A stretch of DNA of 52,138 nucleotides from a virus (lineage: Duplodnaviria; Caudoviricetes). Location: positions 1 through 52,138 of the IMG/VR virus record IMGVR_UViG_3300044839_000032; one strand, 5' to 3'. A model generated the notes under the pieces. It was not told the origin of the DNA, made no database searches, and saw only the letters and a program-made list of their open reading frames with translations. Shown here in pieces: positions 3,217 to 47,371 of this stretch (its first letter is position 1; the number at the start of each line of letters is the position of its first letter). The translations under genes were made by a program, and so were the position numbers.

Positions 3217-4893
3217 GTGACTAGAAAAGTCTCCGTTGAGGACATCCTTGAGTCACTGAAACAGACGCACATGCACGTGATCGGCAGTTCCGGTTACGGC
3301 AAGTCTAAGTTCCTCGAATGGCTCATGCGCCATTTGACCAAGTCCACGGACGCAGGCTTCTGCTTGTTCGACTGGCACGGGACGCTCTACCGAGACGTTC
3401 TCAGATACCTTGCCGGCACGGCCTTCAAACTCCGCCCGGTTTACATCCTTGATCCTTCGGACGGCCGTTTCGTGACCGGCTTCAACCCCTTCTCGACTAC
3501 CGACGAGGACATGAGTGCCCAGGTCTCTCGAAGGATCGATGCGACCGTCAAGCCGTGGGGAGCAACCTCGACCGACGAGACCCCCCAGCTCTCCCGCGTG
3601 CTTCGGATGCTCTACTCCTTCGCGGCCGAGGCTCACGCGACCTTGCCGAATGCCCACCTCATGCTCTATGCGGCAAACCAGAACCTTAGGACCTATGCCG
3701 CATCACTTGTGAAAGACGACTACATCCGGCAACAGCTCCGAGACTTTGCCGAGTTCTCCGATTCCTACTTGCGGCAATACGTCTCATCGACGATGAACCG
3801 ACTGGACCGGTTTCTCGCTCCTACCGCTGTGAGGAGAATGCTCGGCAGGGAATCCGGCAACATCTCTATCCGGCAGATACTCGACGAGAACGGCATCTTG
3901 CTTGTGAACCTCTCGGCATCAGGCAACCTCACCAGCGAATCCGGCAAGCTGATTGCCGCACTCCTCATGAACGAGTTTCGAGAAGCGGCACTTGCGAGAG
4001 CAGGGACGAAGAAGCGGTTCGTCCTCTTCCTCGATGAGTTCCAAGAGTACGTCACCCACGACATCGCGCAGATGTTGGACCAGGTCCGAAAAGGCGGGTT
4101 GAACCTCGTGCTATCGCACCAGCACCTGGCGCAGCTCGGCGACGATGAATCGCTCCAGTCCTCGATCGCGACGAATGCCCGGATCAAGGCTGTCTTTGGC
4201 GGGCTGGATTACGAGACTGCCGCGATGGTCGCAAACGAGATCCGCTTGAAGTCGATCAATCGCAGGCAGGTTGAACGGCAAATCTACGGCCACACGGTCC
4301 TCGGCCACTACGTCGAGACTTTCATCAACAAGAGCACGGGCTATGCATCAACCGAAAGCACCAGCGTGAACGCCAACGCGGGGCAAAGCGGCGGGTACGT
4401 GGACGACGAGCCGGAGGTTACGGGTTGGAGCGAGGCCGGCGGAACGACCACGACCTCGACCGACACGAACTCCAGCAGCGAAACCGAATCCCGGCTCCTG
4501 ATGCCGATCGACGGCAAGGAGCTGAAGTCCGAGCAGGCCGTCTCCCAGGCCGAGAAGATCGCGCACGAAGCCTTCAACATCATGACCATGAAACCCCGAG
4601 AGTTGTACCTAAAGCTCCCGGCCATGCCCCAGGCGGTTTGGCAGAGGGTTCCTGAGATCAAGAGCCGCGGCGTCTTTGCAGAGACCTTGAAAGCCTACGA
4701 AGAGAAGGCGTACGAACGTTCGCACGCCCTCCCGCCCGAAGAGGTCGATAAGGCGATGGTCCAATCCCGCGATGACTTCTTTCAAAAGGCTCTGAATTAC
4801 GGTGCGACCTTGAAGCCGAAGAAAGAAGACGGGACCGACGAGGCACCGAAAGAAGGTCGCACCAAAAAACCTCCGCGTCCGCGTTCCAATTAA
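3217..4893 (+). CDS. VirD4/TraD-like type IV coupling protein ATPase (copy 1)
   Basis: Walker A GSSGYGKS, Walker B FLDEFQ, RKGG..LSHQHLAQL motif; SD AGGAGG before GTG. Confidence 0.85.
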   Translation: MTRKVSVEDILESLKQTHMHVIGSSGYGKSKFLEWLMRHLTKSTDAGFCLFDWHGTLYRDVLRYLAGTAFKLRPVYILDPSDGRFVTGFNPFSTTDEDMSAQVSRRIDATVKPWGATSTDETPQLSRVLRMLYSFAAEAHATLPNAHLMLYAANQNLRTYAASLVKDDYIRQQLRDFAEFSDSYLRQYVSSTMNRLDRFLAPTAVRRMLGRESGNISIRQILDENGILLVNLSASGNLTSESGKLIAALLMNEFREAALARAGTKKRFVLFLDEFQEYVTHDIAQMLDQVRKGGLNLVLSHQHLAQLGDDESLQSSIATNARIKAVFGGLDYETAAMVANEIRLKSINRRQVERQIYGHTVLGHYVETFINKSTGYASTESTSVNANAGQSGGYVDDEPEVTGWSEAGGTTTTSTDTNSSSETESRLLMPIDGKELKSEQAVSQAEKIAHEAFNIMTMKPRELYLKLPAMPQAVWQRVPEIKSRGVFAETLKAYEEKAYERSHALPPEEVDKAMVQSRDDFFQKALNYGATLKPKKEDGTDEAPKEGRTKKPPRPRSN

Positions 4894-5775: not shown

Positions 5776-5956
5776 TTGTTATGATGAAATTCGCACGTCT
5801 TACTGCTAGGAGTCAAAGCTTCCTGGCACACCCTTCACACCCGTCCCCCCGGGCGTTCCCCGCTCTGCCGGAGCTACTGAGGAATGCGTCCGGCGGCTGG
5901 CTGATTCCTCAGACTTCTTGCTGGTGCAGGTGGGGACGGGGCTGACGGATTTTTCT

Positions 5957-7321
5957 ATGCTTACTACCGTTGGACTTAATCGCACGAGCTTTGAACGCTG
6001 GAACCAGCCGGTTGAAGTCGATACCGCAAAACACACGGCGGTCATTGGCACCACAGGAGCGGGTAAGACAACCGTCCTCAAGGCCATGATCCTTGCGGAG
6101 ATCGAAGCCGGCCACGGCGTAACCGTGATGGAGCCGCACGGCTCTTTGATCGATGACCTGTTAGATGCGATTCCGCCTCATCGTCGGAATGACGTGATCC
6201 TCTACGACCCCGGCGACCCCTTGAACTCGATCGGGATGAATCCGCTCGAAGGCGAGGACAAGCCGAAGCTTCTTGCGGAGGCAGAGAAGATCGTATCGAG
6301 CGTTTGGAAAGATGCGTGGGGACCGCAGACCTCTTTCCTCTTTCGGAACTTCGGAGAAGCAATTCTCGAAGTGGAATCCGAACCTACATTTCTGCACATC
6401 TACAAGGCGTTCATGGTGAAGGAGTACCGCGACCATCTCGCCGCGAGAGTAACGAGCCCTACCCTCAAGCTCTTCTTCGACAAGTACGACGACTGGGACA
6501 AGCGGCAACAGGAACAGGCCGCGGCTCCCGGCACAAACAAGCTCGACACCTTCATGCAGGTGCCTTTGAGGTACGCAGTTACCCAACGTCACGGCCTCGA
6601 TTTTTCGAAGGTGATGGACGGCTCGCAGATACTTCTTTGCCGCTTTGCGAAGGGCCGGATCGGACCGACTGCAGGAGCCTTTCTCGGTTCGGTTGTGATC
6701 GCAAAGATTCTCTACGCCGCGCTCGCGAGAGAGAAGACGAGCCACCGGCCGCCGCATCGCGTCTTCATCGACGAAGCCGGGAACTTCATGTGCGGATCAG
6801 CGCACGAACAACTTCTCACCGAGGCTAGGAAATACAACGTCTCTCTAACCATGGGCTTTCAGACCAGGAGCCAGCTCACGCCCGAAACCCTGTCTGCTGT
6901 CTTCGGCAACATCGCGTCGCTCTTAATCGCGCGGGTTGGAGCAAAAGACGCGGAGGAGCTCGGGCTTGAGATCGGCGTGCCGGCCGAGACTCTCCAGAAC
7001 TTGCGGAACTTCTGGTGGTACGCCCGGACGGTAAAGGACGGCTTACGAATCGAACCTATCCAGATGGAAGGTTTGAGGTTGAAAGAGATCCCGAAGAACG
7101 AGGAGGTGACACGGAAGATCATCGAACGAAGCAACACGAGATACGCCACTCCCATCTCTGTCATCGAGAAGAACATCAGGACATTCCTTGAAGGAGGAAA
7201 GCGTGAAACTTCAGTCAGTGGACAAAGCCAACGACCTCAGAAAGCAGTTCGACACGGCCAGGGAGGGGGCGGTCAAAGACCTCCTCGCCCAGCGCGCCGA
7301 GATCGACGCGCAGTTGCATGA
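5957..7321 (+). CDS. VirD4/TraD-like type IV coupling protein ATPase (copy 2)
   Basis: Walker A GTTGAGKT, EPHGSL, Walker B FIDEAG, EARKY..MGFQTRSQL. Start ATG 5957 chosen (ORF open from 5918); no clear SD. Confidence 0.85.
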   Translation: MLTTVGLNRTSFERWNQPVEVDTAKHTAVIGTTGAGKTTVLKAMILAEIEAGHGVTVMEPHGSLIDDLLDAIPPHRRNDVILYDPGDPLNSIGMNPLEGEDKPKLLAEAEKIVSSVWKDAWGPQTSFLFRNFGEAILEVESEPTFLHIYKAFMVKEYRDHLAARVTSPTLKLFFDKYDDWDKRQQEQAAAPGTNKLDTFMQVPLRYAVTQRHGLDFSKVMDGSQILLCRFAKGRIGPTAGAFLGSVVIAKILYAALAREKTSHRPPHRVFIDEAGNFMCGSAHEQLLTEARKYNVSLTMGFQTRSQLTPETLSAVFGNIASLLIARVGAKDAEELGLEIGVPAETLQNLRNFWWYARTVKDGLRIEPIQMEGLRLKEIPKNEEVTRKIIERSNTRYATPISVIEKNIRTFLEGGKRETSVSGQSQRPQKAVRHGQGGGGQRPPRPARRDRRAVA

Positions 7322-7442: not shown

Positions 7443-8474
7443 CTATGAAACGGATGCGGCTTCTTCGTCGGCCGGTTCCCAAACCGCCATCTCGCCTTCC
7501 GGTTCCGGCGCAATTCCGAGCATCTCGCGGAGATCAGTCGTCTCGTCGGGTTGCTTGCCTTCCGGGGGAATGCGTACATCAACGTGCAGGGCTCCAGCGT
7601 TCAGAAGCCTGACCGCCAAGTCCTTCGCGCCGTCGATCCCGGCCTCGTCGCCGTCGAGCAGAAGCGTGATGTGATTGAAGCGGGTAAGCGCGATCACTTG
7701 AGCGTCCGTTGCGCGGTTGCCCATGAGAGCTACCGCGTTCATCACACCCTCTCTGACGCACGCCATAACACCCCAAAAACTTTCGCACACGATCACTGAA
7801 TCTCCCTCGACCCGGTGCAGGTTGTAGAGCACCTGGCCGCGATGAAATCCCTTCGGAAACCGCCACCGTTCCGCATGGGGAATGTCAGGATCGATGGACC
7901 GCCCGGCGTACCCGATCAACTGCCCTTCGGGGTTGTGAATGGGGAAGACAACCCGCCCGGCCATCGACCCCTTTCCTGGGAAGAATCCGACACCGAGGTA
8001 TTCGCATTCTTCCTCGTCGAAGTTGCGCCCCGTCAAGTATTCGTGCTTGTGATCGATGTCCTTCAGCTCAAACTTCAACGGCTCGTTCGTTTCGTCGGTA
8101 GGCGTTTCGGCCACTTCGACCTGAGCCACTGCCGCCGGCGAAGTGCTAGCCACTCCAAACCATTCGACCAGGCGTTCAGCCGCTTCGTACTGCGGAACGG
8201 ATTCCATGACCGAAGTGAAGTAGACAATGTCCCCGCCCTTCCTGCCCTTCCGAGCAGAGCAACAGCTTGTGGAGTTGCACTTGAAGTAGTTCTCCCTCAC
8301 GTTCACGGTGAAGTCGTCGTTCGGCTTGTCCTCATGCGTGGGGAGCGGACACTTGCCGCGCCGCCATGTGGACCCCGCCTTCAGCGCGACCCCGTACCTT
8401 CCGAGAACACTCTCGAACGTGATCCGTTGCTTGAGCCGGTCAAAATCGATGGGCTTCCTTCTCGTCTCTGGCAT
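7443..8474 (-). CDS. DNA primase (Zn-binding domain + TOPRIM), phage/plasmid type
   Basis: CPLPTH..FKC...C Zn finger, GRVVFPI..GYAGR, VCESFWG, LLLDGDEAG, QPD; SD AGGAGG before ATG 8474. Confidence 0.85.
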   Translation of the reverse strand: MPETRRKPIDFDRLKQRITFESVLGRYGVALKAGSTWRRGKCPLPTHEDKPNDDFTVNVRENYFKCNSTSCCSARKGRKGGDIVYFTSVMESVPQYEAAERLVEWFGVASTSPAAVAQVEVAETPTDETNEPLKFELKDIDHKHEYLTGRNFDEEECEYLGVGFFPGKGSMAGRVVFPIHNPEGQLIGYAGRSIDPDIPHAERWRFPKGFHRGQVLYNLHRVEGDSVIVCESFWGVMACVREGVMNAVALMGNRATDAQVIALTRFNHITLLLDGDEAGIDGAKDLAVRLLNAGALHVDVRIPPEGKQPDETTDLREMLGIAPEPEGEMAVWEPADEEAASVS

Positions 8475-8968
8475 AGCCAGCCTCCTTGTCAAACGCCAGC
8501 ACAGGCATTGTGCAGGTCTGCTTTGACAATAGGCTTCTTATAGGATTTGAGAAGGCCCGCTAATCCACAAGAAGCGCTAGAACCACAATCACGCTGGAAT
8601 CACCGTCATGCCTTCGAAGGCACCACCTGATCGCACCTAACTCTTATGTCGCGTGACAGTTAGAAAATCAGCCAAGCGTCGGGTTATCTCGCTTTTAGCG
8701 AGAGTACGTGCTTCTTCTATCGCACGTTCAGTCTGGCGTCCCAGCCAGTCCAGTCAAGGGGATCGTTCCGCGCCCAGGAGAGGTCGCGGTCATAGGTAAC
8801 CGGCAGGTCGATGCTTCGCTGATTATATCGACCCGCCACCTAAGACACGCTCCTACCTCTGCGCTCCACGACCCCTGTGACAGTCCTGGCTTGCGGGCCG
8901 CACATCCCGAACGTGCGATAGAAAAACTGTCGCCCGTGTGCTAGTCCCGCGCGGAACACACAAACGAC

Positions 8969-10573: not shown

Positions 10574-11377
10574 ATGAAGTTCGAAATTAAACACCGTTTC
10601 TCTAATGAAGTTCTGTTCTCAATCGAAACTGATTCTTGGAAGCTGGCAGTAGAAGCGGCGATCAAATCCAAAGCCAACCTCCGCTTCGCCAACCTCAGCT
10701 TCGCCAACCTCAGCTCCGCCGACCTCAGCTTCGCCGACCTCAGCTCCGCCAACCTCCGCTTCGCCAACCTCAGCTTCGCCAACCTCAGCTCCGCCGACCT
10801 CAGCTCCGCCGACCTCAGCTCCGCCAACCTCCGCTCCGCCGACCTCAGCTCCGCCAACCTCCGCTCCGCCGACCTCAGCTCCGCCGACCTCAGCTTCGCC
10901 GACCTCCGCTCCGCCGACCTCAGCTCCGCCGACCTCCGCTCCGCCGACCTCAGCTCCGCCAACCTCCGCTCCGCCAAGAACATCCCGCAGTCCTACGTTA
11001 ACCTCGCTTCGAGGGACATCCTCTTTGTCCTCCTGAACCTTAAGAAGGAAGTTCCCGCGCTCAGAAAGAGCCTAATCGCGGGCAGGGTGAACGGTTCACA
11101 GTACGAGGGCGATTGCGCCTGTCTCATTGGAACGCTCGCAAATGCTGACGGCGGTCTCGACAAAGTTTGCTCCGCGATTCCGTTCTACCAAATGGGAACC
11201 GAGAATCCAGGCGAGGCATGGTTCCTAAACATCAGAGAAGGAGACACCCCGGAAACCAACCCGTTCTCAGCGCACGCCGTTGCTCTTTGCGACCTTGTCA
11301 TCAAGAACAAGATGCACGAGTGGGCTCTTCTGCCGAACCCGTTTGAAAAGGCCGCGAAGACCACTCCCGAAGCATGA
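10574..11377 (+). CDS. Pentapeptide-repeat protein
   Basis: About 20 tandem A(N/D)L(S/R)(S/F) repeats, plus a C-terminal domain with CACLIGT. Confidence 0.9.
   Translation: MKFEIKHRFSNEVLFSIETDSWKLAVEAAIKSKANLRFANLSFANLSSADLSFADLSSANLRFANLSFANLSSADLSSADLSSANLRSADLSSANLRSADLSSADLSFADLRSADLSSADLRSADLSSANLRSAKNIPQSYVNLASRDILFVLLNLKKEVPALRKSLIAGRVNGSQYEGDCACLIGTLANADGGLDKVCSAIPFYQMGTENPGEAWFLNIREGDTPETNPFSAHAVALCDLVIKNKMHEWALLPNPFEKAAKTTPEA
10673..10975 (+). repeat. 15-bp tandem coding repeat (GCC(A/G)ACCTC(A/C)GCT(C/T)C)
   Basis: Visible tandem array encoding the pentapeptides. Confidence 0.9.
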
Positions 11378-14934: not shown

Positions 14935-16720
14935 TCTCCACGAAGAAACTCAGATACGTTCGCCTGCTCCGCAAGACCTCGGTAGGTCGCATGGCTTGGT
15001 TCGAGGTCGAGGTCGGCGGAGTAACCTTCAAGGTCAAAAAGCGGATCAGCGACCTTCCGGCACACGCTCAACATTTACTTCCATGACCACCAACCCAATC
15101 ACATCTAAGAAGCTGGAGGAGTTCTTGGAGCTCTGCGTCCGGTACAACGTCGGCGGAAAGGCGCATATCGCTACCCGAGCCTTCCTCTCCCAAGCCATAG
15201 ACGAAGCGTATGAGGCTGGAGTGGAAGTTCAAAAGGCGCATGACCGCGAACTTATCGGCCAGCTCCTATCGCCACAGTTCAACGCAGCCAAAGCTGCTCT
15301 TCTCGAAGCCCAGCAGCAAACAGCAAAGGAGATTCTGGAAGCGATACGAGCCCACCTCGCCAAGCGCGACGCCGCCTACGGTGACAAGCTCCACTTCGTA
15401 TTCTTCGAGGGCACCGAAAAGAACAACATGCTGAACACCTACCGCCAAGCCTTCACCGAAATCCTCGCCCTCATCTCCTCCAAATATCTCACCCCCAGCT
15501 CGGAAGGGGAAACCAAGAACAACGAAGCATGAACACCGAACTCATAAAAACCGGACTCGCCTTGGCCGACGCGGGCCTAGTGAACAACCCGACCGTTTGC
15601 ATCAAGGGAATGTCATCGTTCGCTTGCGTATGCGCCCCTTGCATGGAACATCTGCGCGCGGTCGTGGCGGTCTTCGCGGCCGAAGTCTTCTCGGACCCAT
15701 CACCAACCAATCAACTAGAAGCATGAACGAAGACCTCTACGAGTTCCTCAAAGAAATCATCCTTTTTTTACCGACACGGGCTACGACCGGACTCGTCTCG
15801 GGCTTCTCCTCGACCACGCGCGGAACAGCATGAACAACGAAAAACCGGAACTCACCTGTCAATCCGTAGAGAAACACCTCCAGACCTGTGAGCTACATCC
15901 GATGGAGAAGGCTCGCTGGACCGGACCCGCAAGCGAGCATGAACCCCGCGAGTACCTGGACAAAATCGCGCAGGAAGCAGCAGAGACCAACCAACCAGGG
16001 GAGAGAACATCGGGCGGAGGTTATGGATACCGCGATCCGAAAACCGGTCAACAAATTCACGCGATCTTTATCGAGAGCAAGAAGACTAACCAACCAGATC
16101 AAGCATGATCATTCTCGCAGCCGTTCTCGGAGCTATCAGCGGGACAATCGCGGCCGGACTCCTGCTTTACGTTAGCGAGCGGATCGCTTGGCACCTCTGG
16201 GCGAAGAAGCGTCAAGAAGCAATCGACCGCAACCCGAACAACCGCATCAAGCACCATGCCTAACCTCCCTGATTTCTCGAAAAAACCGGAAGACCCTTCC
16301 CTTCAACGACACTGCAAGAGATGCCATAGAAACATCTCTGAAGAACCTTTAAGCCACAACAAGATCTGTGGAGGCTTTGCCGGACCCTGCTGGCCGTGGT
16401 GTAGTTATCCCGAAGGGAAGGACTTGCCGGAAAACAAGGGACAGGTACAGTAAAGGCATGGCCTCACTCGATGGAATCGCGAACGCCCGGAACTCGATCA
16501 GCGAGGCGGAAGCGAGGACCCGCGAGCGAATTCACAACCCGGCCAAGGTCTGCGGCATGTGCGGCGGACCCTATGAGTACCGGCTCGTCATCGGTCTCAG
16601 CTCCTGCGAACACGACGGCAAGCAATCAACCAACACACCCCAACCATGTTGAACTTCATTCTCGGCTTTTTCACCTGCGTTCTCGTGCAGGCGATCATCA
16701 TCCGCAACGCGAACAACTGA
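14931..16720 (+). other. Run of short, translationally coupled hypothetical phage ORFs (e.g. 14931-15086, 15083-15532, 15529-15726, 15830-16108, 16256-16453)
   Basis: Repeated ATGA stop/start overlaps; no recognisable motifs beyond Cys pairs. Confidence 0.55.
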
Positions 16721-40293: not shown

Positions 40294-40385
40294 GACCCGA
40301 CCCGCCGCTTCGCAAACAGCGAGCTCCTCTTCCGCCGATCTACCGCCCCAAACAAGAACCGCTCTTCATCAACGACTCAAAGTGA
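40170..40385 (+). CDS. Hypothetical protein
   Basis: SD AAGGAG before GTG 40170; RFWAVYEG..LICLTVYLKGA. Confidence 0.55.
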   Translation: MFRYERYKKTRFWAVYEGETLICLTVYLKGALTLIERITGVRPDPPLRKQRAPLPPIYRPKQEPLFINDSK

Positions 40386-40399
40386 AAGGAGTGTCCCAA

Positions 40400-40786
40400 T
40401 TGTTCAACTACAACCGCGTCATCGTCAGTGGATACCTCGGCAAAGACCCGGAAACCGCTCCCGCCGGAGCAACTACCGCTACAAAGTTCTCCCTTGCTGT
40501 AACCGACCGCTGGAAGGACGCCGCCGGCGAGAAGCAGGAGCGGACCAACTGGCTCTCGATCGTCGTCTGGAACGGCAACGGCGAGAACGCTTCCCAGTAC
40601 CTCAGGAAGGGCTCCCACGTCCTCATCGAAGGCTCGCTCCGAACCTCCGAATGGGAAGACAAGGAATCCGGCCAGAAACGCTGGAAGACCGAAGTCCACG
40701 CCTCGCAGGTCATCTTCCTCGACAAGAAGCCGGACGAGACTCAGGCCTCTCTGCCTTCGACCTCCCGACGCAAGAAGGCCACATGA
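40400..40786 (+). CDS. ssb: Single-stranded DNA-binding protein (bacterial type, no acidic tail)
   Basis: NRVIVSGYLGKDPE, FSLAV, YLRKGSHVLIEGSLRT; SD AAGGAG before TTG 40400. Confidence 0.9.
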   Translation: MFNYNRVIVSGYLGKDPETAPAGATTATKFSLAVTDRWKDAAGEKQERTNWLSIVVWNGNGENASQYLRKGSHVLIEGSLRTSEWEDKESGQKRWKTEVHASQVIFLDKKPDETQASLPSTSRRKKAT

Positions 40787-41828: not shown

Positions 41829-42257
41829 ATGAGTAACACCATCAAAACCCTCTGCGTGAGCGTGTTAGTAATCGCGGCACTCTGCCCGATGAAGACAACG
41901 ACGGCGCAGACTTCATATGAATCAAGACCAGAACAAGCAAGCAGCACAACCGTCATCGCGACGGTCACTTCGTATTCCTCTGTCGATTCTTGCCATTATC
42001 CTAGCTGTGTCATGGCTTCTGGTCGGCCCGCTTACGTTGGTGCTGTTGCCTGTCCTCGCCGGGTTCCTCTGGGTACGGTGGTGCATATCGCGGGAACGCG
42101 TCTTGTTTGCGAAGATCGCACGGCTAAACGCTTCGATGGCCGGTACGACATCTTTCAGGGATACGGCGAACCCGCTCACCAGAAAGCCCTCCGGTTTGGC
42201 AAACAAACCCTAGAAGTCCATGTCGAAGCTCAAAGTATCAATCTCCCGAAAGTTTAA
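41829..42257 (+). CDS. 3D-domain (MltA/RlpA-like) protein with signal anchor
   Basis: TVTSYSS..., ASGR...GAVACP..VPLGT..., CEDR...RYDIF. Confidence 0.75.
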   Translation: MSNTIKTLCVSVLVIAALCPMKTTTAQTSYESRPEQASSTTVIATVTSYSSVDSCHYPSCVMASGRPAYVGAVACPRRVPLGTVVHIAGTRLVCEDRTAKRFDGRYDIFQGYGEPAHQKALRFGKQTLEVHVEAQSINLPKV

Positions 42258-42348
42258 GTGCGACTCCTGCAAGCGTATGGTTTCTGTTGTCCGGTCAGGC
42301 GACGGACTCGAAGGCCAGGTCTGCGATGAGTGTGCGGGGGTCAAGTAG
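42220..42348 (+). CDS. Small Zn-finger protein (42 aa), not in the ORF track
   Basis: MSKLKVSISRKFKCDSCK...VCDECAGVK. Confidence 0.45.
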   Translation: MSKLKVSISRKFKCDSCKRMVSVVRSGDGLEGQVCDECAGVK

Positions 42349-42495
42349 CCGCCAGAATGTCACTGCTCTTGCCTGAGTACGCGGAGAGACCCGACAATCC
42401 GCGACACCCAGAATCCCCTGTCTGGAGCGCAACTCGCCTTATATCGCATTTAAATCGAAGTTTTGATGAAGCCGGATTTAGGGGATAACTCGGCC

Positions 42496-42523
42496 TTGCA
42501 AGCCGCCGCCGCACAGGTACGAT
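42496..42523 (+). promoter_or_regulatory. Promoter TTGCAA-16-TACGAT facing a long non-coding region
   Basis: Sequence match; reverse DnaA-box-like GGGGATAA at 42481. Confidence 0.55.
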
Positions 42524-42529
42524 AGAAGA

Positions 42530-43206
42530 GTTCCCTTGGAAACTGCTTTCACCAGTTTCATCCTATTGTGGCGGATGGAACGCTCAGATGAGTCCGTGCC
42601 ACAATCACGGGCTCTTTTGTTTCTTGACTCCGGGTTTACGGTGCAACTCCAGACTCGTCGGTGAACACTCCGACGAAACCCGGCGTCAGGGCGCAAAGCT
42701 CTGAATGGTTGTGCGTTGATGGGGGAAGCGACGCGAAGATATTCGTGGAAGGCATGCCGACGAGACACCATACATGTCGGCTACCACGCGAGAGAATGGA
42801 CTAGGTGGTGTTGGAAAGTTCTCTCCTCCCCACCAGCGCACAACCGAGATCGTTCCTTGAAGCGAGAGAGATGTTTCGTGCCTCAAAAATGCGGAGGCGG
42901 GAAGCGAACCCGCCCATAACATCTAAAACACGAGGTTCCGCCGCAACTCTGACTACCTCTCTCACTTCAGCGAATTAGATCGCTGGGAACGCTCGCTAGA
43001 TAGAGCGCCGGATTTCTCCGGGAAGGTATCTAGCCCTTCGAAATACTCGACTCAACTCCGGCTCATGTCCGAGGAACACCAGTACCCTGACCTTTTCAGG
43101 GGTGGGCAACCCTCATGAGAGGAGGAAGGAGAGGAAGAAGGGGCCTGCCTTTGGTTCCAATGGGGGGAGCCGGTAGGGTGTCGCACAATATCTTTTTTAC
43201 GACATA
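42530..43206 (+). ncRNA. Putative large structured non-coding RNA (~670 nt)
   Basis: No convincing ORF; more than 10 hairpins and nested long-range stems (42707-42725/42827-42845; 42858-42870/42957-42969); upstream promoter. Confidence 0.55.
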
Positions 43207-43530
43207 TCAGTTCGCCGGCGAGAGGTAATCGTCGGCCGACTTCTTCTTTGTGAGGTTTTCCATAGCTTCTTCGAACATCGCCTTCTCTTCAGCCGCTCTT
43301 CGCCTCATCTTTTCTTTTCCATCCTCGAGCGCAGCTAGGAGCTCCTCTTCCCGGATCTCGCGCCGTTCCCGCTTCTCGAAGAACGGCTCCAGCGCTTCCT
43401 CGAAGTCGGCCTTGATCTGTTTCATGTTCGAGCGATACGTGAGGATCACGCTTTCAAGCTCAGCGATCCGCCCTATCATCTCGGCGGTCTCAGGGTCCTC
43501 AATCGCTTCGCTCACCTTTCGTCTCGGCAC
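43207..43530 (-). CDS. Coiled-coil hypothetical protein
   Basis: Charged helical 107-aa ORF; SD GGAG. Confidence 0.6.
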   Translation of the reverse strand: MPRRKVSEAIEDPETAEMIGRIAELESVILTYRSNMKQIKADFEEALEPFFEKRERREIREEELLAALEDGKEKMRRRAAEEKAMFEEAMENLTKKKSADDYLSPAN

Positions 43531-44164: not shown

Positions 44165-44175
44165 AATGCCCGGTC

Positions 44176-44349
44176 GTGAACGCCGCCCAGCTCATTCTCG
44201 ACTACGTGGACTTTTGCGACCGGCGCGGCCCGGTTCTCGAACTCTCCGAGTACGTGGTCGTCTGGAGAGTAGCGAACGAGATCGCCGAGGAGACGGCGCC
44301 GGAGGATCGCGAAATGGTCCTCGCCAGCATCCTTCCGAACCGCGAGTAG
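44176..44349 (+). CDS. Hypothetical protein
   Basis: Short acidic ORF after the HTH gene. Confidence 0.4.
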   Translation: MNAAQLILDYVDFCDRRGPVLELSEYVVVWRVANEIAEETAPEDREMVLASILPNRE

Positions 44350-44402
44350 CTCTCCATCCGGTAGAATCGCCCGAACTCCATGTCTTTCGAGGGGGCGGGT
44401 GG

Positions 44403-46028
44403 ATGAAGAATCTCCTCTACTACGGGGACAATCTAGATGTTCTGCGGCGGCACATCGACGACGAAGTCGCCGACCTTGTCTATTTGGACCCGCCCTTCAA
44501 CTCCAGCCAGGACTACAACGTCCTTTTTGCAGAGCATGACGGGACCAAGGCCGCTGCCCAAATCAAAGCTTTCGGTGACACTTGGAAGTGGGACGAGTCA
44601 GCCGCCCGCGCTTACCAAGAGGTAGTCGAGTCGGGCGGTCGGGTGTCCGAGGTTCTGCAGGCCTTTCGCGCATACCTCGACCGTACGGACATGCTTGCGT
44701 ATCTTTCCATGATGGCCCCGCGCCTCATTGAGCTGCGGCGGGTCATGAAGCCAACGGCGTCCATCTACCTTCATTGTGACGCGACCGCTAGCCACTACCT
44801 CAAGGTGGTCATGGATGCGACCTTCGGCCCTGAGAACTTCCGAAACGAGATCATCTGGCAGCGGACCCTCGCGAAAGGACTTCAGACCCGCAAGCTCGCA
44901 CAGAATCACGACGTAATCCTTGTTTACCAGAAGTCCGATCAGGCGTATTTCAATCTCGACTCTACCTTCCAGCCTTACGACGAGGATGACCTATCCGAGA
45001 AGACAGCCGGAAAGTACGCTTCCCGCGATGAAGACGGCCGGCGGTTCCAGCTCACCAGCCTCCTTAATCCGAACACCGACCGGCCGAACCTGAAGTATGA
45101 ATTCCTCGGCGTCACCCGCGTCTGGCGCTGGACGCAGGAGCGCATGCAGGCAGCCTATGAAGCGGGCTTCGTGATCCAGACTCAGCCCGGCACGGTCCCA
45201 CGGTTCAAGCGGTATCTCGACGAACAGCGAGGGATGCCACTCCACGACGTTTGGACCGACATCCCGCCCATCAACGCGCGCGCGAAGGAACGCCTCGGGT
45301 ATCCCACACAGAAGCCTGTCGCTCTTCTTGAGCGCATCGTGAACATTAGTTGTCCTCCGGGCGGCGTCGTGCTCGATCCATTCTGCGGTTGCGGGACGTC
45401 GATCTCCGCAGGCCAACGACTGGACCGTCCATGGATAGGAATCGACATCACTCACCTTGCTATAGGACTGATCCGAAGCCGTCTTCGCGGCGAGTTCGGC
45501 GAAGAGATCGCGAAGACATACCGGGTCATCGGCGAACCGACAACCGTAGAAGATGCGATGGAGCTCGCGCATGAAGACCCGTACCAGTTCCAATGGTGGG
45601 CGCTCGGTTTGGTCGGAGCCCGCCGGGACGAGGAAAAGAAGGGAGCCGACCGAGGTATCGACGGCAAACTCGCCTTTCACGACGAGGGTCTTGCCGGGAA
45701 AACGAAGAACGTCGTCATCTCCGTCAAAGCCGGGAAGCTTCACGCGAACCACGTGCGGGACTTGCGCGGAGTCATCGAAAGAGACCGCGCCGAGATCGGC
45801 GTGCTTATTTCGATGGAAGAACCCACGAAGCCGATGCGGTCGGAAGCAGCGAACGCAGGTTTCTACAAGTCGCCGTATGGCACCGACCACCCCCGGCTCC
45901 AGTTCCTCACTATCCACGATCTTCTCCACGGGAAAGGCATCGACTACCCAGCTCCCAGGCAGACTAACGTCACGACCAAACGCGCACGCCGTCACGTGAA
46001 GGATGACGAAGCCCGCAAGCTTTTTTAA
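44403..46028 (+). CDS. N6-adenine/N4-cytosine DNA methyltransferase (beta class) with C-terminal PD-(D/E)XK restriction-endonuclease-like domain
   Basis: YLDPPF, YPTQKP, LDPFCGCGT; C-terminal ADRGIDG...ISVKAG; start ATG 44403. Confidence 0.88.
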   Translation: MKNLLYYGDNLDVLRRHIDDEVADLVYLDPPFNSSQDYNVLFAEHDGTKAAAQIKAFGDTWKWDESAARAYQEVVESGGRVSEVLQAFRAYLDRTDMLAYLSMMAPRLIELRRVMKPTASIYLHCDATASHYLKVVMDATFGPENFRNEIIWQRTLAKGLQTRKLAQNHDVILVYQKSDQAYFNLDSTFQPYDEDDLSEKTAGKYASRDEDGRRFQLTSLLNPNTDRPNLKYEFLGVTRVWRWTQERMQAAYEAGFVIQTQPGTVPRFKRYLDEQRGMPLHDVWTDIPPINARAKERLGYPTQKPVALLERIVNISCPPGGVVLDPFCGCGTSISAGQRLDRPWIGIDITHLAIGLIRSRLRGEFGEEIAKTYRVIGEPTTVEDAMELAHEDPYQFQWWALGLVGARRDEEKKGADRGIDGKLAFHDEGLAGKTKNVVISVKAGKLHANHVRDLRGVIERDRAEIGVLISMEEPTKPMRSEAANAGFYKSPYGTDHPRLQFLTIHDLLHGKGIDYPAPRQTNVTTKRARRHVKDDEARKLF

Positions 46029-46044: not shown

Positions 46045-47199
46045 TTACGCGCCGCCCTGAATCACTTTGAACTTTTGCTGTTGCTTCGGCCACGTTGCCC
46101 GGACACGTTCCGTGAGCCGCACTTGTCTGGCCTGAACCCACGCTGAGTAGTGCTTCTCGACGATCTTCACCGAGTTGCCGAGGATCGCGGCTACGTCCTC
46201 GATAGGAACGCCGTTCGCCAAAAGGCTGGTTGCGAGGGTGTCCCTGAATCTGTGGGCGACCATCATGTTCGTTCCCTTCGAAACGCGAGCGTCCTTCAGC
46301 ACTCTCCGAAGGGTTCTCTGCCAGCTTGAAACGGCCGACAGGGGCTTGCCGTTGCCCGACCAGAAAAAGTAACGGGAGTTACTGTTCTTCGTCGCTTGGT
46401 ACCTGAGCGCATCAGCCACATCAGGCGGAAGAGGCACGAACACCGCTTGCCCCGTCTTTCCCGTCCGAAGCATCAGGTCATCGCCATGCAACCGCTCAGT
46501 TTCGAGACAGGTTGCGTCCTGAATCCTGAGTCCCGAATACCGAAGCAAGAGGACGAAGCACTTGATCCGGTCCGGCCGGTTGTGGCCGTGGTCCCCGTGA
46601 TGCGAATACTTCTCGCACGCCGTGATGATCCGGCCCATTTCCTGATCTGTGTACGGCAGGGTTGGGGGTTCGTCGATCTCAGGGGTTTTGAACTCAGCCG
46701 CCGTATTTTTCGCGATCCACTCAGCAGCGGTGCAGAAGCCCATGAACTGCTTCAGAAGCTCCAGCCGTTTCGCGGCAGTCGCCGGCATCATCTTCCATGA
46801 CGCCTTGAAGGTCGCCAGCTCCGCAAAGGTCAGCTGCTTCACGTATCTAAAGCCCCTGCCTTCGCACCAGGAGACCACCTGACGGCCGATGAACCTCCGG
46901 TAGAGGCGCATGGAGCTTTCGGCTAGGTTCCGGCTCTCAGCCTCAGCCAGGAACAGTTTCGTGGCTTCCTCGATTGTGACGAGCTTCTGATAGCCCCCGC
47001 CGATCTTGCCGGACTTGATCCACTCTCTAATCTCGTTCTGCGCGGCCTCCCACGAGGTCTGGTCCATGTTCCGGCGAACCGACTCTCCACCGAGGGAGCC
47101 TTCAACGTAGATAGGACAGGCGCAACGCCGGTAGCTTCTGCCTCGTTTCGGATTCTCTTTCTGGCATGCGGTTCCGTGCCGCCGATACAGCGTGAGCAT
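46045..47199 (-). CDS. int: Tyrosine recombinase/integrase
   Basis: SGLRIQD (R), KTG (K), HRFRDT (HxxR), LGN, HY; adjacent to the tRNA att site. Confidence 0.95.
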   Translation of the reverse strand: MLTLYRRHGTACQKENPKRGRSYRRCACPIYVEGSLGGESVRRNMDQTSWEAAQNEIREWIKSGKIGGGYQKLVTIEEATKLFLAEAESRNLAESSMRLYRRFIGRQVVSWCEGRGFRYVKQLTFAELATFKASWKMMPATAAKRLELLKQFMGFCTAAEWIAKNTAAEFKTPEIDEPPTLPYTDQEMGRIITACEKYSHHGDHGHNRPDRIKCFVLLLRYSGLRIQDATCLETERLHGDDLMLRTGKTGQAVFVPLPPDVADALRYQATKNSNSRYFFWSGNGKPLSAVSSWQRTLRRVLKDARVSKGTNMMVAHRFRDTLATSLLANGVPIEDVAAILGNSVKIVEKHYSAWVQARQVRLTERVRATWPKQQQKFKVIQGGA

Positions 47200-47250: not shown

Positions 47251-47295
47251 CCGTTGCTCCAGAAGCTAAACCACTGATTCCTAAGAGGATAAAAG

Positions 47296-47371
<76 letters not shown>

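Follow-up and report, generated by a model that had tools for sequence, protein, structure and literature searches.

A gene-free region and the RNA family it carries

The stretch of DNA analysed here (the window) is the whole of IMG/VR virus record IMGVR_UViG_3300044839_000032, 52,138 bases long, and holds a temperate phage of Thermoanaerobaculia (Acidobacteriota) integrated at a tRNA-Phe gene. Between the gene of a 3D-like protein and a convergent open reading frame (ORF) of 107 amino acids (aa) lie 949 nucleotides (nt), 42258–43206. If ORFs shorter than 100 aa are ignored, no other gap in the window is as wide. This agrees with an original prediction, made from the sequence alone, that the longest stretch without a credible ORF lies here. 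The gap houses one copy of a real, previously undescribed and rare family of phage noncoding RNA (ncRNA) that is unknown to Rfam. Its parts are a promoter-like site, a leader with an intrinsic terminator, a variable middle part and a conserved 3′ core.

For 42530–43206, no conserved frame or family match points to a protein-coding gene, and the substitutions seen in relatives keep base pairs. The five short ORFs in the gap (97, 78, 67, 57 and 54 aa) matched no Pfam family, Pfam being the one search applied to them. With four ORFs of relatives as queries (the three cargo ORFs described below and a 90-aa ORF upstream of the core in genome G224), tblastn found no ORF remnant in 42300–43300.

The region (677 nt) folds with a z-score of −5.79, and none of 20 dinucleotide shuffles folded as well, which places it outside the shuffle range, as had been proposed. 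Its minus strand folds nearly as well (z −5.61), so folding energy alone cannot assign the strand. The middle part contributes a z-score of −5.12 (0 of 100 dinucleotide shuffles as good), the core −2.84 (2 of 200) and the leader −2.18 (6 of 200). All three long helices of the original prediction were recovered as inverted repeats: 42616–42637/42676–42697 (22 nt, 77% complementary), 42707–42724/42828–42845 (18 nt, 89%) and 42853–42870/42957–42974 (18 nt, 83%). The short hairpins listed with them appear in the minimum-free-energy fold. Rfam 15 covariance models, whose families include GOLLD, ROOL, OLE, HEARO, raiA, group I and II introns, C4, RNAI, 6S and tmRNA, were run on 42300–43300 at E-values up to 10. 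The best six matches scored 11.7–17 bits, far below their gathering scores, and the comparison that had been recommended therefore yields no family for the region. A tRNA-Sec-like match of 16.9 bits and a minus-strand terminator-like site at 42915–42895 were dropped, neither being conserved in the related locus L003.

L003 was reached through a tail protein 89% identical to that of the window phage, and it carries the same region. Patterns drawn from conserved parts led to two viral contigs (L012 and L089), to a metagenome sequence (L020, its upstream sequence incomplete) and to a Thermoanaerobaculia genome with two copies. BLAST, nhmmer and a covariance model added genomes G003, G068, G224 and G790, and a search of the order with a leader pattern gave two further leaders, in G040 and G787. 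In all, 11 loci hold the core and 11 the leader, in prophages of Thermoanaerobaculia. The core is present in 5 of 127 genomes of the order, in 4 of 401 sampled from the class and in 2 of 401 sampled from the phylum. It had no blastn match among 50,697 deposited phage records, and a second pattern with three anchors returned only the same three viral records.

Several pattern hits were set aside. A 17-nt pattern occurred in seven stretches, of which only the record of L003 is related; the other six are chance matches. The pattern for core hairpin P2 occurred in 54 viral stretches, of which nhmmer kept three, and in 4 of the 401 genomes of the phylum sample, two of them true. No description of this RNA was found in the literature, where lists of unnamed candidate RNAs in preprint supplements may include it.

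The conserved 3′ core

The core comprises the following elements.

42986–43185, plus strand: core, about 220 nt conserved, with P2, P3, P4 and the invariant UGUCGCA
42995–43034, plus strand: P2, a hairpin with a 5×5 internal loop and outer helix GCTAGATA/TATCTAGC (42995–43002/43027–43034)
43035–43143, plus strand: P3, a rod of about 110 nt with tip CCCUGA/UCAGGG at 43085–43101
43144–43177, plus strand: P4
43179–43185, plus strand: UGUCGCA, invariant in members
43178–43205, plus strand: 3′ hairpin GUGUCG/CGACAU with a U-rich loop, ending one nucleotide short of the stop codon of the convergent 107-aa ORF

In L003 the 3′ 230 nt are 97% identical to the window, against 66–72% for the flanking genes. 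A covariance model of the core (R1) recognizes 10 of 10 members at 106–269 bits, and P3 folds as a rod in all nine members tested. In the core alignment of 10 members, 90.5% of the cells at paired positions are paired, compared with 84.0% in shuffles (reached by none of 500), and 17 of 52 pairs are changed on both sides (2 of 500 shuffles). The covariation score is 0.274, compared with 0.144 in shuffles (0 of 500) and 0.035–0.085 when the partners are slid. Both-side changes fall in the P2 outer helix (four pairs), the P3 tip (four) and P4 (five). The partner arm 3′ of UGUCGCA is readable in 8 of 10 sequences, and no U tract follows the last hairpin of the core.

A hairpin CGCUC/GAGCG (42990–43007) had also been listed in the original prediction. 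It stays complementary through changes in relatives, as the P2 outer helix does, and the two exclude each other; the evidence comes from pair counts for the P2 outer helix and from inspection of the relatives' sequences by eye for CGCUC/GAGCG. The hairpin, which competes with P2, may represent an alternative fold or belong to a knot.

The core described above is one of at least two types. After the modules, the loci of G040 and G787 carry a different conserved 3′ domain (L114, about 2020–2160; L116, about 900–800, minus strand), and the model of the first core finds nothing in these two genomes (best match 6.8 bits).

A leader with a terminator and complementary loops

Upstream, the leader and its promoter-like site read as follows.

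42496–42523, plus strand: promoter-like site, TTGCAA (42496–42501), a 16-nt spacer and TACGAT (42518–42523)
42555–42581, plus strand: hairpin HL1, stem GUUUCAUC/GAUGGAAC and an 11-nt loop; stem conserved, loop variable
42565–42572, plus strand: loop code a (AUUGUGGC), in the HL1 loop, complementary to 42598–42605
42590–42625, plus strand: HL2, an intrinsic terminator with a G+C-rich stem of 9 base pairs (bp) (42590–42598/42606–42614), loop CCACAAU and U tract UUUUGUUUCUU
42598–42605, plus strand: loop code b (GCCACAAU), the HL2 loop with its closing pair

We infer a transcription start near 42530. Relatives carry TTGCAA, TTGAAG, TTGACA or TTGCAT and TACGAT, TATTCT, TATCGT or TATCAT at the same place, with the position of the −10 element kept. 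On the minus strand no promoter-like site was found within 42350–43206.

The original prediction overlooked a strong plus-strand intrinsic terminator at 42590–42625. A terminator scan places its stem-loop (42590–42614, then TTTTGTTTCTT) about 60 nt past the proposed start. With nine pairs, six of them G-C, followed by TTTTGTTTCT, it has the form of an intrinsic terminator and may act as one in vivo. In all nine leaders compared, HL2 is a 9–11-bp hairpin of −14 to −19 kcal/mol directly before the U tract; its stem sequences vary among leaders and the U tract is conserved. What looked like a second leader copy in L028 falls within the reading frame of the primase and is a chance match. The HL1 pattern occurs once in the window, compared with 0.01 expected, is present in 11 leaders and folds in nine of nine tested. 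The promoter and terminators, together with the excess of G·U over A·C cells in the core alignment (44 versus 7), indicate that the plus strand is the RNA strand.

The loops of HL1 and HL2 match each other within each leader. Contiguous Watson–Crick complementarity of 6–8 nt joins them in 11 of 11 leaders (mean 7.45), and the code exists in nine distinct sequence versions among the 11. Across the 110 cross-pairs of leaders the mean falls to 3.17 nt; seven reach at least 6 nt, four of these between members with identical codes. The two prophages of genome G001 (L106 and L107) have different codes. No consistent third copy of the code was found elsewhere in the phage, where extra matches occur at chance level only. 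These pair counts come from custom scripts; the MAFFT leader alignment (A6) sets the terminator stems out of register. The loop lengths would suit a putative H-type pseudoknot, with L1 of 1–3 nt, S2 of 6–8 bp, L2 of 0–2 nt and L3 of 14–17 nt.

Cassette modules between leader and core

What had been proposed was a new large ncRNA class with its own promoter. The absence of an Rfam match, the retention of promoter position, leader and core in relatives and the covarying pairs uphold the class. The picture of one RNA of about 670 nt has to be revised, the region being composite: a leader of about 100 nt and a core of about 220 nt are conserved, and the roughly 340 nt between them (42628–42967) are cassette-like, being absent, different or swapped for small ORFs in relatives. 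The elements of this part in the window are listed here.

42624–42703, plus strand: module A, with junction UUGA and helix CUCCGGGUUU/AAACCCGG (42628–42637/42676–42683), seen both as an inverted repeat and in the fold
42655–42661/42670–42676, plus strand: hairpin UCGUCGG/CCGACGA, enclosed by the module A helix
42687–42703, plus strand: 3′ hairpin of module A, CAGGGCGCAAAGCUCUG
42707–42845, plus strand: I2 domain, a cloverleaf-like four-way junction closed by a helix of 12 bp, with a second helix of 6 bp and three hairpins
42846–42985, plus strand: module B, with junction GAGAUCGUUCCUUGA and helix P0 UGAAGCGAGAGAG/CUCUCUCACUUCA (42858–42870/42957–42969), interior variable
42968–42985, plus strand: hairpin P1, CAGCGA/UCGCUG, which ends module B; three versions seen in the family

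Each module consists of a long helix, with ..GUUYYU-UGA at its opening and UCA at its close, and of a CAG...CUG hairpin after it; members have one to three such modules. An unbiased search for the best upstream partner of the segment before P1 led to a start at the UGA after GUUYYU in seven of nine members. The CAG...CUG hairpin of module A adjoins the core directly in L012, L020, G068 and G003. Its form CAGGGCGCAAGCUCUG adjoins the core in L012 and L020; in the window (42687–42703) I2 and a second module part it from the core. The P0 helix differs strongly in sequence between members, and its interior ranges from 8 to about 240 nt of RNA or is an ORF.

ORFs occupy this part in three relatives. 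The cargo of G003 encodes a 75-aa protein that matches phrog_2293 (E 6.6e-16). In G001a and G001b the cargo encodes small proteins that match the Pfam Acb2/Tad1 hairpin family with 22.7 and 27.6 bits at a cut-off of 27; against the solved Vs.4 and Tad1 structures the matches are weak (E 0.31 and 0.89), and this predicted assignment is borderline. The P0 helix itself encloses the ORF in G003 and G001b. The two G001 prophages are related, each with the RNA and such an Acb2/Tad1-hairpin-like small ORF.

The I2 domain is optional in the family. Window, L003, G040 and G787 have its outer architecture in common and differ in its interior. The copy in G040 (L114 1697–1816) matches the tRNA model with 32 bits, above the gathering score of 29; its T arm is canonical, a large insert stands where the anticodon arm would be, and ARAGORN does not call it. 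The I2 domain of the window has no plus-strand tRNA match at E-values up to 10 and none from ARAGORN. In L003 the P0 interior ends in a canonical T arm (GGTTCGACTCC, about 16040–16080) directly 5′ of the 3′ strand of the helix, and this locus has a weak YrlA match of 18 bits (gathering score 69).

A proposed attenuator and the alternatives to it

We read 42496–43206 (plus strand) as the gene of a modular structured ncRNA in which the leader would be a loop-coded attenuator and the core the functional output, a reading to which we give an even chance. The self-matching loops of HL1 and HL2 suggest an RNA-based self-recognition switch. During transcription, the HL1 loop would pair with the terminator loop as the latter emerges, forming an H-type pseudoknot. 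The third loop of this pseudoknot would hold the 5′ arm of the terminator, whose stem could then not close, and polymerase would read through into the cassettes and the core. Transcripts that do terminate would leave an RNA of about 95 nt with both loops free. This leader RNA would act in trans, binding to the matching loops of nascent transcripts and so restoring termination, and the result would be a dosage- and lineage-specific feedback with a logic like that of immunity or incompatibility systems. The core would be the functional output, to which small accessory proteins are added in relatives.

Full kissing over 7–8 bp between adjacent hairpins joined by only 5–8 nt seems sterically unlikely on geometric grounds. 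The pairing would therefore either compete with the terminator in cis or act between molecules, and the same loop pairing could indeed occur between molecules. Both modes would fit a code-specific attenuator feedback, of the kind that IsrK and P4 CI RNAs exert within their own transcription units (PMC4825925).

A number of observations weigh against the attenuator. In every member the terminator hairpin, at −14.2 to −19.2 kcal/mol, is more stable than the pseudoknot helix, at −4.9 to −13.6 kcal/mol, so that read-through would hinge on folding kinetics. With efficient termination, this promoter may yield hardly any core RNA, and no conserved promoter was seen after the terminator in relatives. 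The promoter-like site agrees with the consensus at 8 of 12 positions; the scan, with its threshold of 9 of 12, does not list it. The core of G224 has no leader within 900 nt, and the leaders of G040 and G787 carry the different 3′ end. The complementary loops are at the same time an inverted DNA repeat with halves 31–34 bp apart. Within the core, the closing helix is weakly supported, being 83% paired and mostly invariant; the alignment behind the pair statistics (A5) was fitted to the model and leans towards its structure, and its members are few and related, so that counted cells are not independent events. A search of sequencing runs for the stretch gave 24 DNA runs, one of them with all sampled words, and no RNA run; transcript start, end and read-through are all predictions.

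A wider form of this reading seems to us doubtful, if possible: an RNA chassis with a lineage-specific address, swappable cassettes and one of at least two alternative 3′ cores, serving as a self/non-self system at the RNA level. Matching 5′ loops would let molecules of the same phage recognize each other, and recognition would either switch the terminator or link RNAs end to end in rings or chains, in the manner of the kissing loops of ROOL and GOLLD. Between address and output would sit the cassettes, plugged into helices: domains resembling tRNA, or small ORFs among which there may be some for counter-defence proteins. If this holds, co-resident prophages could run separate programmes.

The cargo ORFs of G003, G001a and G001b, lying between leader and core and in G003 and G001b inside P0, would also suit an expression cassette, as would the place of the unit in an accessory zone near methylase and integrase genes. 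The leader would then act as an attenuator 5′ of small accessory genes, which possibly serve counter-defence, and the core as a stabiliser or terminator 3′ of them; the window copy would have lost its protein cargo, and its RNA would have no role of its own. This we hold to be unlikely. Eight of the 11 core loci have no cargo ORF that we could find (upstream sequence being incomplete in L020), and the tblastn search of 42300–43300 with four ORFs gave no gene remnant. The long invariant stretches and complex junction of the core go far beyond the needs of a terminator, its last hairpin is not followed by a U tract, and the Acb2/Tad1 assignment is borderline (structure matches E 0.31 and 0.89). 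The alternative that the loops and folds belong to the DNA, with the repeats as protein-binding sites (operators or boundaries of cassette exchange) and the RNA folds incidental, is very improbable. It would account for the inverted repeat formed by the loop codes, for module junctions that are repeated sequences where cassettes appear exchanged, and for the invariance of UGUCGCA. It has to contend with the many helices that keep pairing through both-side changes and with the ratio of G·U to A·C cells (44 versus 7). Moreover, the spacing of the repeat varies by 3 bp with each half exactly in a hairpin loop, TGTCGCA occurs in 3 copies in the window where 7.9 are expected and so is no repeated operator, and no code has a consistent third copy.

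An RNA-primed replication origin, the other function put forward in the original prediction, is in our view improbable. A transcript from the promoter would prime or activate replication of the phage DNA, as RNA II does in ColE1, and specificity in copy number or incompatibility would come from the loop code. The unit adjoins the primase gene in G003, G068, L089 and G224 and lies 1.5–2 kb after the gene for SSB in others, and its lineage-specific complementary loops recall incompatibility determinants. Mycobacteriophages offer a precedent, an ncRNA region being required there for replication of extrachromosomal prophages (PMC7157519). Here, an intrinsic terminator stands about 60 nt past the start, and relatives have ORFs and variable inserts inside the unit. 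Neither iterons nor another array of direct repeats was found in the region, nor is any stretch A+T-rich (G+C 53–56%), and the GC skew, which had been suggested as a check, is steady through the region with no turn and is uninformative. A prophage integrated at a tRNA gene, as this one is, can do without its own origin; family members carry the unit at two separate genome positions; and no Rfam match to RNAI or other plasmid RNA families was found. The statement that the phage block has no recognizable initiator, helicase or polymerase also has to be corrected, as the prophage encodes a DnaG/Toprim primase, two TrwB/HerA-like ATPases, ERF, a YqaJ exonuclease and SSB.

Comparison with known RNA systems

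In C4-type systems complementarity differs between heteroimmune phages. The RNAs of Rfam's C4 family (P4 CI, P1/P7 c4 and Gifsy-1 IsrK) resemble the one described here in being phage-borne and in having a regulatory hairpin and its complementary target in one transcript made from a promoter. A short terminated or processed form of the IsrK and P4 CI RNAs acts on longer transcripts of its own unit, and pairing in P4 controls premature termination (PMC4825925). The window RNA shares the self-complementarity within a transcript, but has no match to the C4 model at E-values up to 10; by analogy it may work like C4, CI and IsrK without being a family member. Two differences are apparent. The target here is the terminator's own loop, and downstream lies a large structured RNA with cassettes, whereas in the C4 family replication or antirepressor genes follow.

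Complementary loops also decide the fate of a nascent transcript in plasmid countertranscript attenuation and in ColE1 RNA I/RNA II. The likeness lies in fully complementary loops of 6–8 nt with a lineage-specific sequence. In contrast to the plasmid systems, a single RNA, read from one strand, has both loops here; no sign of an antisense promoter was seen, and neither a rep gene nor origin features lie downstream. Compared with the ColE1 primer origin, the region has a terminator about 60 nt past the start, no minus-strand promoter in 42350–43206 and no RNAI match.

ROOL, GOLLD and OLE are likewise large, multi-domain and often phage-borne RNAs of unassigned function. The present family differs from them in having no Rfam match, in its smaller size (about 400–700 nt), in its leader terminator and swappable cassettes, and in its rarity (5 of 127 genomes of the order). 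Loop–loop covariation in ROOL/GOLLD-type RNAs reflects kissing between molecules (PMC12286853), and by analogy intermolecular kissing may lead to assembly here as in ROOL and GOLLD. A further likeness, to tRNA- and YrlA-like modules, is seen in the tRNA score of the G040 I2 domain, the T arm beside the P0 3′ strand in L003 and the cloverleaf-like I2 of the window. Set against it, the window I2 has no tRNA match, ARAGORN finds none in these regions, and the YrlA match reaches 18 of the 69 bits of its gathering score.

Large structured phage RNAs are few and their functions mostly unassigned; this family adds one from a phylum whose phage biology has hardly been studied, the Acidobacteriota. Nine code versions, and two prophages in one genome that differ in theirs, form the pattern expected of self/non-self RNA, be it in immunity, incompatibility or assembly. 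The cassette build is also of interest, since RNA domains and small ORFs are swapped at fixed junctions within one transcript and the domain of one relative scores as a tRNA.

Prophage setting and neighbouring genes

A 24-nt exact direct repeat (1514–1537 and 47293–47316), whose second copy lies at the 3′ end of the tRNA-Phe gene, is likely the core of the attachment site and would bound a prophage of about 45.8 kb. That tRNA-Phe (47299–47371) is the sole match in the whole window to reach an Rfam 15 gathering score. The genes of the prophage and the region around the RNA are as follows, with strands given where recorded.

3217–4893 and 5918–7321: two TrwB/HerA-like ATPases
7443–8492, minus strand: DnaG/Toprim primase
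after the primase: early genes for ERF, YqaJ exonuclease and NinG
after NinG and ahead of DUF6876: terminase, capsid and tail genes
40382–40786: SSB, preceded by DUF6876
41829–42257: 3D-like protein, just upstream of the RNA region
42220–42348: 42-aa zinc-ribbon ORF with two CxxC pairs, just upstream of the RNA
43207–43530, minus strand: 107-aa ORF, downstream of the RNA and convergent with it
beyond the 107-aa ORF: convergent 141-aa ORF
after the 141-aa ORF: HTH gene, then a methylase fused to an Mrr-like domain
46045–47199, minus strand: integrase

Within a single phage group, the unit occupies two positions in the genomes of its carriers. In the window, L003, L012, G001a, G001b and G790 it has SSB and 3D-like genes on one side and HTH and integrase genes on the other. 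In G003, G068, L089 and the decayed element of G224 it lies between the second ATPase on one side and a small ORF and the primase on the other. Downstream genes are always convergent, and no neighbour protein is common to all members. Two positions and the lack of a common neighbour speak for the unit being a self-contained module. No relatives of the 107-aa and 141-aa ORFs turned up in viral contigs, and a search with the 3D-like protein led to one locus, L002, that is without the RNA.

Some features of the neighbourhood deserve mention in their own right. The methylase gene between the HTH gene and the integrase (44166–46028) encodes a 620-aa N6/N4 DNA methylase with an Mrr-like or inactive restriction-endonuclease domain. 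In the early region a pentapeptide-repeat protein (10574–11377) adjoins ERF and the YqaJ exonuclease. G790 encodes a 30-aa stretch 67% identical to the 42-aa zinc-ribbon ORF of the window; a tmRNA gene adjoins the integrase of its prophage (L110 11940–12293), so that ssrA and not a tRNA gene is the probable integration site there. In G224 the core is kept without the leader in an apparently decayed element (L111 8141–13900), where the primase matches only in fragments, and this element sits between a beta-lactamase-family gene and a polyprenyl synthetase gene.

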